64,000 bases of DNA from a virus. Below are positions 2,392 through 42,978 of this stretch, piece by piece. The stretch lies in the UHGV virus genome UHGV-0057547; one strand, given 5' to 3'. Below the pieces are notes generated by a model. That model made no database searches. It worked only from the letters and a program-made list of their open reading frames with translations, and was not told the DNA's origin. The first letter of the stretch is position 1, and each line of letters begins with the position of its first letter. The position numbers were made by a program, and so were the translations under genes.

Positions 2392-3327
2392 ATGGCATGG
2401 AAATATGAAGATGTGAAAAAGTATGTAGAATCATTTGGTTATAAATTAATATCAAAAGAATATAAGACTTGTAAAGATAAACTTCATTTAATGTGTCCTA
2501 ATGAAAGTGATTTTATTGTAAGATTTGATAATTTTAAAAATGCTAAACAACGTTGTAAATGTGATAAATGTAAAGGTAGAAATCCAAGAATGTTTTCTTA
2601 TGAATATGTAAAAGAATACATAGAAAAAGAAGGGTATAAATTAATATCAAAAGAATACAATGGAAATAAAAAACGTATAGAATTAGAATGCCCAAATGGT
2701 CATAAATGGAAAGTAAGATTTACTGATTTTAAAAATGGAAGAAGATGTTATTATTGTTCTTGTTGTTATAAACCTACCATTGGAGAAATTAGAATGAGAT
2801 TATCAAAATATGGTTATACATTGTTATCTGAAGAATATAAAAATGCAAATGAAAAAATTAATGTAAAATGCCCTAATGGTCATAAATATCCTACTACATA
2901 TCATAATTTTGATAATGGTAAAAGATGTCCATACTGTTATAATAAATATAGTAAAGGTGAGTATAGACTTATAAATTTATTTAATAATTATAAAATAAAC
3001 TATAAACATCAATATATTTTTAATGATTGTAGAGATATAAATCCTTTGCCATTTGATTTTTATTTATATGATTATAATTGTTGTGTAGAATTTGATGGAG
3101 AAGGGCATTATGAACCTAGAAATTGGAATGGAGCTTCAGATGAAAAAGCAATAGAAACATATAAAATAACGGTATTACATGATAAAATTAAAACACAATA
3201 TTGTAAGGATAATAGCGTAAAACTCATAAGAATACCATATTGGGAATTTAATAATATAGAAAACATTATTTGTCAAGAATTAAATATTAAAAGAAAACAA
3301 AGAAGAAAAGGTAATAAATTAAAATAA
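2392..3327 (+). CDS. intron-encoded homing endonuclease: 4 tandem Zn-ribbon-like modules + C-terminal Vsr/DUF559-like PD-(D/E)XK nuclease
   Basis: Repeated module Y(V/I)E..GYKLIS.EYK.....L...CPNGH.....F.NFKNG.RC..C x4. C-terminal block PLPFDFYLYDYNCCVEFDGEGHYE...KLIRIPYWEFNNIENII. Confidence 0.6.
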   Translation: MAWKYEDVKKYVESFGYKLISKEYKTCKDKLHLMCPNESDFIVRFDNFKNAKQRCKCDKCKGRNPRMFSYEYVKEYIEKEGYKLISKEYNGNKKRIELECPNGHKWKVRFTDFKNGRRCYYCSCCYKPTIGEIRMRLSKYGYTLLSEEYKNANEKINVKCPNGHKYPTTYHNFDNGKRCPYCYNKYSKGEYRLINLFNNYKINYKHQYIFNDCRDINPLPFDFYLYDYNCCVEFDGEGHYEPRNWNGASDEKAIETYKITVLHDKIKTQYCKDNSVKLIRIPYWEFNNIENIICQELNIKRKQRRKGNKLK

Positions 3328-3484
3328 ATATGAATAAACTTCAACGACTAAGTATCCTAGTAGTCTAGGTAGAGGAAGAGGTCTTATATTAATAAGATTG
3401 TGATATAGTCTGCTCTCATGCGAAAGCATGAGCAGTTCATAAAAGAACGGATAGAATAGTAACGATATTCTATTGAACATAAGG

Positions 3485-3617
3485 AATCTTATAAAGGAGA
3501 AGATAGCTAAAGAGCTATGTTCTCAATCGAAAATGTTAAATAGAGAAATTGCTAAAGTAGTCACTGGTACTAATGAAACAGTGGTTATCTTTAACAATGG
3601 TAGTACCATTCAAGTTT
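3485..3617 (+). CDS. terL: large terminase subunit, exon 4
   Basis: Frame from 3485 reads NLIKEKIAKELCSQSKMLNREIAKVVTGTNETVVIFNNGSTIQV until TAA 3617-3619. Consistent with the post-Walker-A region of TerL ATPases. Confidence 0.5.
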
Positions 3618-3826
3618 AATGCTTTGCACATTGAGTAATTAGTGTGTATAACCGATTGAATTGCTTGTAAATCCTAAAGCTAACTAAACTACAACGTAAC
3701 CTGAAAAGGTAAGCGTGAATGTAGCGAAAGCAGAAAAAATTAGTTAGATGGTATATGGTTAAATCCTAAGTACTTTTACAATGGAAGTCTAGCAGGGAAG
3801 ATTCTAAAATTATTTAAATTAAATAT

Positions 3827-3855
3827 TTGACTTTTAATAATATAAGTTGTATAAT
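3827..3855 (+). promoter_or_regulatory. intron-internal sigma70-like promoter
   Basis: TTGACT 3827-3832, 17-nt spacer, TATAAT 3850-3855, SD GGAGGTG, ATG 3878. Confidence 0.55.
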
Positions 3856-3877
3856 ATAAATAAATGGAGGTGATAAT

Positions 3878-39996: not shown

Positions 39997-40019
39997 ATAA
40001 GTAAAGAGAGGTGGAATAT

Positions 40020-40913
40020 ATGGGTCAAAAATTGAATAGAAAAAAAATAGAAAAATATATAAATCAATATAATTATGAAGTTTTATATTGTAAACATGAT
40101 AAAAATAAATATAAATGGAAACTCATTTTAATGTGCCCTAATTTTCATATTTTCAAAATGGATTTTGATAAATTTCAAAATAATAGAAGATGCCCTTGTT
40201 GTAATGGTTCTAAGTATAATGAAGATTTTGTTAGAGAATATATGTTAAATAATGGAGATATACTTTTATCTCATTATCATAATGGAAATGAAAAATTAAA
40301 AGTAATGTGTAAATATGGTCATATTTTTTATCCAATATTTAATAATTACTATAATAAAAATTCAAGATGTCCATATTGTAATGGGAATATAACTATGGAG
40401 CATAAAAGTTTTATTAATAGATTAAATACAATTAACCCTAACATAGAAATATTGGGTGAATATAAAAATAGTCATACTAAAATTAAATGTAAGTGTAAAA
40501 TAGATGGGCATGAATGGGAGGCAAAGCCTACTAATCTATTAGGAAGTAAAAATGCAAAACCAACTGGATGTCCAAAGTGTTATAGACGAACTTATCGAGG
40601 TGAAACACATCCTTTATTTGACCATAGTAAAACAAAAGAAGATAGAGAAGATGATAGAAGTTATTTTGAATATAATGAATGGAGAACTAAATGTTTTGAG
40701 AGAGATAAATATACTTGTCAAGTTACCGGACAACAAGGTGGAAGATTAGTAGTACATCATTTATATTCTTATAATAAATATTATTGTTTAAGAACGACAT
40801 TGGAAAATGGTATAACAATATCAGAAGAAATACATAAAAAATTCCATTCTATTTATGGAAATGGAAATAATACATTCGAACAATGGGAAGAATTTATTAA
40901 AAGTTTAAAATAA
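40020..40913 (+). CDS. intron-encoded homing endonuclease: Zn-ribbon modules + C-terminal HNH domain
   Basis: N-terminal modules as in the Vsr-type paralogs (CPNFH...RCPCC, CKYGH...RCPYC, CPKC). The C-terminus carries a canonical HNH block: CQVTG...LVVHHLYSYNKYY...NGITISEEIHKKFH. Confidence 0.6.
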   Translation: MGQKLNRKKIEKYINQYNYEVLYCKHDKNKYKWKLILMCPNFHIFKMDFDKFQNNRRCPCCNGSKYNEDFVREYMLNNGDILLSHYHNGNEKLKVMCKYGHIFYPIFNNYYNKNSRCPYCNGNITMEHKSFINRLNTINPNIEILGEYKNSHTKIKCKCKIDGHEWEAKPTNLLGSKNAKPTGCPKCYRRTYRGETHPLFDHSKTKEDREDDRSYFEYNEWRTKCFERDKYTCQVTGQQGGRLVVHHLYSYNKYYCLRTTLENGITISEEIHKKFHSIYGNGNNTFEQWEEFIKSLK

Positions 40914-41131
40914 TTTAACATGAATAAACTTCAACGACTATCCCTTGGATTTACTAATTTAGTAAATCAATAGGAGTACGGCTCAAGTGATTGGAGTGGG
41001 TGAAATCCCCTTAAATGGAAAAGGTCTACTCCTACAATTGTAGGATGAAGAAATAGTCTTGACACGTTTTGAAAGAAAGTGCTTAGAATTAACTAAGGTT
41101 TATAAAATGCGATTATAAATAAAATTTTTCG

Positions 41132-41476
41132 TAAAGAAGCTTATCAAAGATGGAGAGACGATGTTGACTATAAAGATGATTATAACAAACAATTAAAAAC
41201 TGTTGAAGATTTACAAAAGAAAATAGAAATAGCGAAACGTGATGATAGTTTAACTGGACAAAAACGTTTAGCAGATTTGATGAAAGAATTAAAAGAAGAA
41301 CAAGAAAATCTTGAAGATATGGTTCAAGACAAAATTAACAGTGACGTGAATAATATGTTTGATGACCAAATAGACAAAATAGAAGAAAATTCTGATGAAG
41401 AAGTTAAGAATTTGGAAAAAACATGGTCAGAAAGCAAAATAGCTGAAATGGTTAAACAAGCACTTGATACTGGAGT
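41132..41476 (+). CDS. tape measure protein, exon 6
   Basis: The frame opens at 41133. Junction KFSL-V-KEAYQRWRDD... Ends CTGGAGT with P1-like hairpin GGAGTAAATTAGCTCC. Confidence 0.5.
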
Positions 41477-42978
41477 AAATTAGCTCCTTTTACTAAGTAA
41501 TTAGTATTAAAACTCATTGAATTGCTGGAACTTCCTAAAGCTAACTAAACTACAATATGGCTAGAAATGGCGAATATGAATGTGGCGAAAGCAGAAAAAA
41601 TTAGTTAGATATTCATATGGTTAAATCCTAAGTGAATATAAATGGATAATCAGCAGGTAAGTGCCTAAATTTATTTTATAAAATAATTGACTTTTAATAA
41701 GATAAAACGTATAATATAAGTAAAGAAAGGGGTTGAGATGATGAAAAAACATGATTATAAATTTATTAAAGAATATGTTGAAAGTTTTGGATATAAATTA
41801 TTATCAACAGAATATAAAAATGCTAATACTAAATTAAAAATAGAATGTCAAGAAGGACATATGTTTGAAAGAACATTTAGTAAGTTTAAACAAACTCAAA
41901 ATTGTCCATATTGCACTAATACTAGAAAATGGAATATTTTAGAAATAAAAGAGTATTTAAAAAACATAGGTTATACATTATTAAGTACAGAGTATAAAAA
42001 TAATCAAACCAAATTAGATATGATTTGTTCAGAGGGACATAAAATACAAATGACTTTAGGAAATATCCAACAAGGTAAAAGATGTCATATATGTTCAAGA
42101 AAAACAGCTTCAGAAAAAAGAAAACATGATTATGAATTCGTTAAGCAATATATTGAAAATGAAGGTTATAAATTATTATCCAAAACATATATAAATCAAG
42201 ATGAAAAATTAAAAATAAGATGTTCGAAAGGTCATATATTTTTAATGAGTTTTTGTAAATTTAAACAAGGTCAAAGATGTCCTCAATGTTGTAAAAATAA
42301 AAAAATGTCTCATAAAGAATTTTTAGAAAAATTCTATAATCAAAATTACAATACTGAAAATATAGAAATATTGAGTGAATATATAAATGCTAAGACGAAA
42401 ATAAAATGTAAATGTCTAAAAGACGGTTGTATTTGGTATGTTATACCTAATAGTTTACTAAACGGAACTGGTTGTCCTCAATGTAACGAATCTAAAGGAG
42501 AAAAAAGAGTTGCTAAATATTTAGATAGTAGAAATATAGAATATGAAAGACAATATAAATTTAATGATTGTAAAAGTAACAAAGAGTTACCTTTTGATTT
42601 TTATATACATAGTTTAAATATAGCTATAGAATATGATGGTGGACAACATTATATGATAGTAAACCATTTTGGAGGACTTAATGGATTTATAACTACTAAA
42701 ATACATGACACTATAAAAACACAATATTGCAAAAATAACAATATTCGTTTAATAAGAATACCATATTGGGATTTTGATAATATAGAAAATATACTAAGTC
42801 AATTATTAAATATAAATATGAATAAATAAGGCAAAACTTCAACGACTATATATACTAGTAGTCTAGTTAGTGGTGAGCATCCTTATGGGATGATGATATA
42901 GTCTACTCTCATGTGAAAGCATGAGCAGTTCATAAGAGAACGGTATAAGGTTTAACGAACTTTATATGAATATTAAGG
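41477..42978 (+). mobile_element. group I intron (family A) with homing endonuclease gene; TMP intron 6
   Basis: P 41520-41531. Q 41648-41657. Promoter TTGACT 41687-41692, 17-nt spacer, TATAAT 41710-41715. ORF 41738-42829. R 42837-42849. S about 42891-42903. Terminal hairpin TATAAGGTTTAACGAACTTTATA then GAATATTAAGG| at 42977-42978. Confidence 0.75.
41738..42829 (+). CDS. intron-encoded homing endonuclease (4 Zn-ribbon modules + Vsr-like nuclease)
   Basis: C-terminal block ELPFDFYIHSLNIAIEYDGGQHYM...RLIRIPYWDFDNIENILSQLL. Confidence 0.6.
   Translation: MMKKHDYKFIKEYVESFGYKLLSTEYKNANTKLKIECQEGHMFERTFSKFKQTQNCPYCTNTRKWNILEIKEYLKNIGYTLLSTEYKNNQTKLDMICSEGHKIQMTLGNIQQGKRCHICSRKTASEKRKHDYEFVKQYIENEGYKLLSKTYINQDEKLKIRCSKGHIFLMSFCKFKQGQRCPQCCKNKKMSHKEFLEKFYNQNYNTENIEILSEYINAKTKIKCKCLKDGCIWYVIPNSLLNGTGCPQCNESKGEKRVAKYLDSRNIEYERQYKFNDCKSNKELPFDFYIHSLNIAIEYDGGQHYMIVNHFGGLNGFITTKIHDTIKTQYCKNNNIRLIRIPYWDFDNIENILSQLLNINMNK

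Follow-up and report, generated by a model that had tools for sequence, protein, structure and literature searches.

Is the family of nine paralogous genes in the UHGV virus genome UHGV-0057547 a new kind of homing endonuclease, as an original prediction made from its sequence had proposed, and do its members behave as mobile elements? We analyzed a window of 64,000 nucleotides (64 kb) of this genome. The window is AT-rich (~27% G+C), carries every gene and feature described here on the + strand, and spans the structural module of a large phage, with terminase, portal, baseplate and giant tape-measure-like genes. Human-gut metagenome contigs, as well as IMG/VR contigs of 173-198 kb, contain DNA that is identical to it or nearly so, and the closest terminases from cultured phages, those of Clostridioides and Thomasclavelia phages, are ~37-44% identical. 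Our analysis indicates that the nine proteins are very probably homing endonucleases encoded in introns, of the group in which CapR-like zinc modules are joined to an EDxHD/Vsr-like nuclease. Judged from their sequences, they are new members of a recently described, abundant branch of Vsr-like homing endonucleases and not a new family.

All nine open reading frames (ORFs) are present, and the repeated module and common C terminus are visible in their translations. A module hidden Markov model (HMM), iterated on the nine proteins and then run against the six-frame translation of the window, detected 28 modules (domain E-values 1e-12 to 1e-25) exclusively in the nine predicted ORFs. The modules number two to four per protein, as had been proposed: four each in ORFs 6581 and 41738, two in ORF 29762, and three each in ORFs 2392, 3878, 10713, 15986, 21491 and 40011. 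A module spans ~57 amino acids (aa) with the pattern C..[HC]....C..C. In an alignment of 27 modules, three cysteines are invariant, and a fourth ligand to zinc is either His (C..GH) or Cys (C..C). The modules score above the Pfam cut-offs for CapR (PF21817), at up to 55 bits against 24.2, and for DUF4379 (PF14311), at up to 45 bits against 24.5, and precomputed domain assignments on homologues comprise PF21817, PF14311 and PF05265, DUF723 among them. Each protein is a string of two to four independent modules predicted to bind zinc.

While the ORFs themselves are real, three of the start positions first given for them need revision. The starts at 16001 and 40020 are internal ATGs of ORFs for which the ORF lister gives GTG starts at 15986 and 40011. 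ORF 10713, listed with a TTG start, probably begins at ATA 10611, after a GAGG Shine-Dalgarno sequence, since the in-frame upstream sequence completes its first module. An alignment of the nine paralogues, which the original prediction had suggested, gave pairwise identities of just 30-51%. These values mark the paralogues as old lineages and rule out a recent tandem duplication.

A second HMM, built for the C terminus, matched exactly eight ORFs in the window, with E-values (1e-40 to 1e-59) that rule out chance ORFs. The domain lies C-terminal to the modules, spans ~115 aa, and has the computed consensus ...LPFDFYIP..NI.IEYDG.QHY...D.IK..YCK.NNIKLIRIPYWEFDNIE.IL, in agreement with the motif initially noted. 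In a conservation alignment of 33 sequences, comprising diverse homologues and all eight window paralogues and numbered by the ORF 41738 domain, G8, L38, D41, F42, E52, G55, H58, D78, K81 and I95 are invariant, and E9, D54 and R94 nearly so. All eight window nucleases possess every invariant domain residue, are full length and contain no frameshifts. The anticipated Vsr/DUF559-like fold was borne out in that the domain has a Vsr-like nuclease fold, shared with I-Bth0305I and DUF559, with 15% identity to Vsr. The E-D-x-H-D order of the EDxHD family (E25, D51, H64, H69 and D97 in Vsr) is kept as E9, D41, D54 at the x position, H58 and D78. This residue equivalence was assigned by sequence register, not by superposed coordinates, and it agrees with the 3r3p alignment of a Hef-like domain and with hhalign. 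In the same register, I-Bth0305I reads (D)FYLG.KLAIEVNGVYW(H)...DK.K and the window proteins read DFYLP..NI.IEYDG.QH...D..K.

Proteins of this architecture were described in 2025. Four phage group II intron ORFs, along with group I intron homologues, were reported to carry ~60-aa CapR/DUF4379/DUF723-like domains, three to five in number, and an EDxHD/Vsr-like domain of ~100 aa at the C terminus (PMC12350094; NAR 2025, gkaf761). Of the ORFs located by Table S1 of that report, that of S6 (192136-193443) aligns with ORF 41738 (BLASTP E=2e-39), and that of AR9 (120537-121442), labeled "HNH endonuclease; group I intron VSR" in GenBank, matches our C-terminal profile with an hhalign probability of 99.65% (E=5e-25). 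The published and window proteins are therefore alike in architecture, in their location within phage self-splicing introns and in direct sequence homology, and the proposal of a distinct family has to be abandoned. The two sets differ in that the published proteins carry three to five modules and reside in group II introns of RNA-polymerase genes, whereas those of the window carry two to four, are encoded within group I introns that interrupt structural genes and within a second, unclassified element, and occur as nine copies within 43 kb. The PHROGs entries concerned are phrog_559 ("HNH endonuclease"), phrog_9084 ("homing endonuclease") and phrog_7140 ("intron encoded nuclease"). With ORF 41738 as the query, we found 1656 homologues; at E<=1e-3 the nuclease domain was detected in 46,023 representatives of clusters formed at 50% identity, and 814 cultured-phage records contain full-length or partial relatives.

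Several other known systems share parts of this design. I-Bth0305I, the EDxHD prototype (PDB 3R3P; PMC3239194), has two N-terminal NUMOD2/HTH motifs where the window proteins have Cys/His zinc modules, and the motif E.NG.YWH where they have E.DG.QH. Direct sequence similarity between the two is not significant, and the I-Bth0305I ORF interrupts P5, whereas the window ORFs end just before J6/7. The Hef-like nucleases of T-even-type phages, Acj9, LIMEstone and Campylobacter CP220-type phages, which Taylor et al. place in the Vsr-like family, also have E.NG.YWH, together with an extra C-terminal region, and their genes are mostly free-standing, outside introns. Like the window proteins, however, the Campylobacter Hef-like protein is an array of similar zinc modules, four in its case, with a Vsr-like domain behind them. 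The protein can be aligned with ORF 41738 across modules and nuclease (97% of its length, E=4e-29), and its nuclease domain matches 3r3p at E=2.3e-4 and also finds the "Hef-like homing endonuclease" genes of Acj9 and AR9. The original prediction had set the motif apart from that of the EDxHD lineage; the motif difference stands, but the Campylobacter protein offers a transitive path between the two. E. coli Vsr (PDB 1CW0/1VSR) is a stand-alone T:G-mismatch repair nickase with its own structural zinc site and no N-terminal module array, whereas the window proteins are multidomain and intron-encoded. Finally, T5orf172 endonucleases with CapR/DUF723/DUF4379 arrays (Vibrio phage ICP1 and others) and the repressor CapR share the zinc-finger modules and the theme of duplication and shuffling, but the T5orf172 nuclease is GIY-YIG-related (the satellite repressor CapR has none) and not Vsr-like.

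The genomic setting of the family supports its assignment to intron-encoded enzymes. Whole-window Rfam scans, at the gathering threshold and at E<=1, gave no match, a false negative that we attribute to the size of the search and to the interruption of the introns by long ORFs. When an ORF-less copy (13099-13500), which serves as our reference ribozyme, was scanned locally, it matched RF00028 on 13100-13452 (36.8 bits, E=6.5e-8). The J6/7-P7 eleven-mer TTCAACGACTA occurs in 11 exact copies in the window, and related 5' halves number 13. Seven family ORFs and one HNH variant are each flanked by a 5' half and a 3' half of such RF00028-like introns, hereafter class A, in split genes (TerL, portal, phrog_4088, phrog_3313 and a tape-measure-like gene). 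Their stop codons fall 2-16 nucleotides (nt) before the J6/7-P7 core element, and the RF00028 alignment of the ORF-less copy would place the ORFs in a peripheral loop, the last hairpin before J6/7. We consider these intervening sequences to be putative self-splicing group I introns.

Most of these introns could be delimited against five close relatives, IMG/VR contigs L010-L014, which were identified in a scan with the spliced portal protein and compared with positions 1-17600 of the window. Gene 1 (2392-3327; nuclease HMM 2e-53) has its stop codon 12 nt before TTCAACGACTA and lies in an intron (2135-3484) that splits TerL between ...EQAR and NLIKEK..., with bounds taken from the intron-less L011 allele. 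Gene 2 (3878-4834), with a variant nuclease (1e-40), lies in the TerL intron 3615-4999, for which L011 provides the intron-less junction CAAG|CAGTAAA; a variant core, TTCAACGAACA, follows its stop codon by 2 nt. The intron of gene 3 (6581-7705; 4e-59) occupies 6325-7864, just past Walker B of TerL (VLVVDEYRMIQG|), and its intron-less junction in L011 is GGAG|GTTTTGAT. Gene 4 (10611-11516, with the probable ATA start) lies in an intron at 10364-11675 that splits the portal gene (phrog_2739); the boundary is ambiguous by the dinucleotide GT, and the intron-less site in L010 and L011 is AATTTACCAGTAGGAG^TTTGTGTAAATAC. Gene 5 (15986-16912; 3e-58) lies in an intron at 15737-17070 that splits the phrog_4088 structural gene, again with an intron-less junction in L011. 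The introns of gene 6 (21491-22417; 6e-56) and gene 8 (41738-42829; 1e-59) were bounded by analogy and reading frame, at 21253-22596 and 41476-42978, the latter in the tape-measure-like gene. The module matches of gene 8 reach 55 bits for CapR and 45 bits for DUF4379, and an identical protein occupies the identical site in at least 20 gut-metagenome contigs. Gene 7 (29762-30469; 1e-55) is outside class A introns and is considered below.

TerL itself extends over 308-9428 in at least eight exons (~308-406, 750-862, 2033-2134, 3485-3614, 5000-~5030, ~6280-6324, 7865-7998 and 8343-9428), separated by four RF00028-like intervening sequences and three of a second type. Three family genes lie in these seven, along with an HNH gene at 988-1773 and a phrog_4645 endonuclease gene at 5087-5956. 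The latter and its paralogue at 31569-32351, which represent a further nuclease family, are found in intervening sequences of TerL and the tape-measure-like gene, respectively. The intron cores at 2176-2330, 3656-3812, 6362-6520, 13140-13295, 15778-15904 and 22440-22481 give megablast matches of 120-150 nt at 79-93% identity to unannotated spots in Herelleviridae of Staphylococcus, Enterococcus and Bacillus, one of them just past the tail-tube gene of phiIPLA-RODI. These matches indicate that the same intron lineage circulates among unrelated Firmicutes phages.

Comparison with the five relatives revealed, among genomes 93-99% identical, a mosaic of precise presence/absence polymorphisms of introns and intron ORFs. 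The portal genes of L010 and L011 (98% and 94% identity) are uninterrupted. Missing from L011 as well are the introns of ORFs 2392, 3878, 6581 and 15986 and a second-type (class B) element with HNH ORF 988, each excised to the nucleotide; this relative carries a family nuclease ORF (1886-2635, E=1.3e-38) inside a class B intron whose counterpart in the window holds no ORF. L013 keeps the 2135-3484 intron, with 15 nt in place of its ORF. The 6325-7864 intron is absent from L014, in which a family ORF (7899-8900) adjoins the counterpart of the window's ORF-less intron 13099-13500. Differences of this kind between such similar genomes point to recent movement, and the mosaic appears to be the signature of homing-endonuclease gain, spread and loss, the clearest that sequence data alone can show. 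At least five of the enzymes have a natural target site represented by an intron-less allele.

We envisage that a protein made from an intron-containing genome would bind, via its module array, the intron-less allele of a co-infecting relative, and that its Vsr-like domain would use Mg2+ to cut close to where the intron inserts. Vsr and I-Bth0305I suggest, by analogy, roles for D41 and D78 in metal binding and for H58 as the general base. The E.DG.QH nuclease may nick as a monomer, like Vsr, or make a double-strand break as a dimer, like I-Bth0305I. Recombinational repair would then copy the intron and its gene into the cut allele, and RNA splicing would keep the host gene working.

Several observations weigh against this reading. 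Direct profile similarity between the C-terminal domain and I-Bth0305I is weak (hhalign probability 15.8%, E=0.0016), so the link to the EDxHD family comes from the fold, the motif register and transitive matches. Searches of PDB sequences with a single domain (phmmer) or the 33-sequence profile (hmmsearch) gave no significant match and did not recover 3r3p, returning noise and sub-threshold DUF559. Pfam DUF559 (PF04480), DUF2726 and PvuRts1I_N all score under their cut-offs. Enzymes with the E.DG.QH motif are biochemically uncharacterized, and ORF 3878, with a few homologues, has Q54 and E94 at nearly invariant positions, although the other conserved residues are retained in ORF 3878. Unlike the other family ORFs, ORF 29762 sits upstream of an ORF-less class A intron and not inside one, and the bases that flank the introns depart from the group I norm, with A or G as the last exon base at a 5' splice site where U is expected. 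Pfam Vsr did not match the eight proteins at E<=0.1 and NCBIfam has no model for the family; overall, none of the Pfam, NCBIfam and PDB sequence searches gave the C-terminal domain a significant match.

The weak hhalign result, and the fact that the best of the weak Pfam matches are DUF559, DUF2726 and PvuRts1I_N, would also fit an independent recruitment of the nuclease from DUF559/Vsr-like cellular nucleases, in a lineage separate from EDxHD (I-Bth0305I/Hef). E.DG..H is the DUF559 motif, not the E.NG..WH of I-Bth0305I and Hef, and PMC12350094 calls the group an "outgroup." We regard separate recruitment, which would preserve the original prediction in a weakened form, as possible, though less likely than not. 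Hef-like proteins, in which the same zinc-module array precedes an E.NG.YWH nuclease, can be aligned with the window proteins from one end to the other, and AR9 has both nuclease types in introns of one gene; the two nuclease variants thus share a scaffold, a niche and hosts.

The departure at the splice sites is systematic. In all eight intervening sequences with fixed limits, the inserted DNA starts with T and ends with G. Six of these were delimited by intron-less alleles (2135/3484, 3615/4999, 6325/7864, 10364/11675, 15737/17070 and 863/2032) and two by reading frame (21253/22596 and 41476/42978). The initial T can wobble-pair with G of the internal guide (for example, GGAG|T...AGCTCC). 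Applying the canonical U(-1) and terminal G adds one base and shifts the frame. Splice sites derived from these rules together with the reading frame were ambiguous, and the intron-less alleles showed them to be wrong.

As for ORF 29762, its surroundings suggest a different kind of element. The 3' flank of gene 7 (30560-30689) is 71-86% identical to the 3' parts of class B intervening sequences, a similarity from which we infer a probable class B copy around the gene (29666-30700, approximate). The ORF-less class A intron (~30712-31060) follows directly 3' of it. Of the nine intron ORFs first described, seven family ORFs and the HNH variant reside in class A introns, with ORF 29762 outside class A. 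Class B copies at 863-2032, ~5030-6279, 7999-8342 and ~29666-30700 are 71-90% identical and share conserved blocks such as AATACCGAGGTAAG and CTCCAAGAGTG. The element also follows HNH ORF 988 and phrog_4645 ORF 5087, and the copy at 7999-8342, which is ORF-less, is structured (z = -4.09). Rfam searches on class B yielded no family match, even at E<=10. Because class B interrupts TerL and the 863-2032 copy is absent from L011, it behaves as a putative mobile intron of unrecognized type.

A further question is what the cutting is for. The main selected role of the enzymes could be interference with competing phages, by cutting essential structural genes of a co-infecting relative. All targets are essential genes (terminase, portal, tape measure), and a mosaic of variants co-circulates in gut metagenomes. 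This explanation is compatible with homing and additional to it, but sequence alone cannot tell the two apart; as the main selected role, we hold it to be plausible yet less than probable.

It is improbable, in our assessment, that most of the nine are decayed or domesticated non-cutters, kept as splicing helpers (maturases) or as DNA-binding regulators like CapR. Decay is predicted by the homing-endonuclease life cycle and agrees with the ORF-less derivative of the 2135-3484 intron in L013, the lack of a standard start codon in ORF 10713 and the two substitutions at nearly invariant positions in ORF 3878; CapR, moreover, is a domesticated relative of such modules (PMC10448857). Set against this are the intact, full-length nucleases of all eight family genes and the presence/absence differences between genomes 93-99% identical, the latter pointing to recent movement.

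Finally, although phrog_559 is labeled "HNH endonuclease" and matches down to E=4e-91, and the GenBank product line of the AR9 homologue reads the same, the view that the eight are HNH enzymes is hardly credible and is refuted by the absence of any HNH Pfam match or HNH motif in them, by their conserved residues and by their Vsr-like fold. The phrog_559 label is an annotation carry-over. An HNH-like C terminus occurs in ORF 40011 only.

This shuffled relative (40011-40913) has its three zinc modules followed by a C terminus that matches phrog_119 (E=8e-10) and, below the 21-bit cut-off, Pfam HNH_2 (17.1 bits). It is predicted to be the same DNA-binding scaffold joined to an HNH nuclease. The module array and HNH-like end described for ORF 40020 are thus present, but the ORF starts at GTG 40011 and the sub-threshold HNH_2 score tempers the description of a canonical HNH domain. 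Its class A intron (39740-41110, approximate; core halves at 39848 and 40930) splits the tape-measure-like gene. Module repetition and shuffling between nucleases have been described in CapR/T5orf172 genes (PMC10448857), and ORF 40011 is a further example. In gut-metagenome contig L009 (628-1182), a 184-aa ORF with a SpoU methylase domain occupies the position of this ORF, which suggests that the intron or site carries another cargo there.

The family is among the commonest phage nuclease architectures, yet its nuclease domain has no Pfam model or NCBIfam name and its members are widely mislabeled "HNH endonuclease" or "hypothetical." The window offers a good experimental entry, with nine diverged paralogues in one genome, a natural HNH swap and intron-less targets for at least five enzymes. 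The window illustrates, too, the degree to which the structural module of a phage can be colonized, with TerL in at least eight pieces. We speculate that the tandem modules read DNA modularly, each ~57-aa unit contacting a short target block, although we think this unlikely. If it were true, recognition rules could be derived and the scaffold re-targeted with a Vsr-like or HNH cutter. One lineage provides 28 diverged modules in nine proteins, and intron-less alleles fix at least five natural targets with single-nucleotide precision, which together could make such a derivation possible.

Beyond the family, the window contains four giant ORFs at 24503-29665, 33116-39763, 46649-52591 and 55181-61543 (1720, 2215, 1980 and 2120 aa), the first two of which are tape-measure-like. 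The first may or may not be distinct from the split gene that begins near 31189. Between the end of the tape measure and a Dit-like gene lies a free-standing endonuclease VII/HNH-like gene (43457-44164; 235 aa, phrog_1035). Metagenome contig L008 matches the window otherwise but lacks it, an absence that marks the gene as another mobile nuclease gene.

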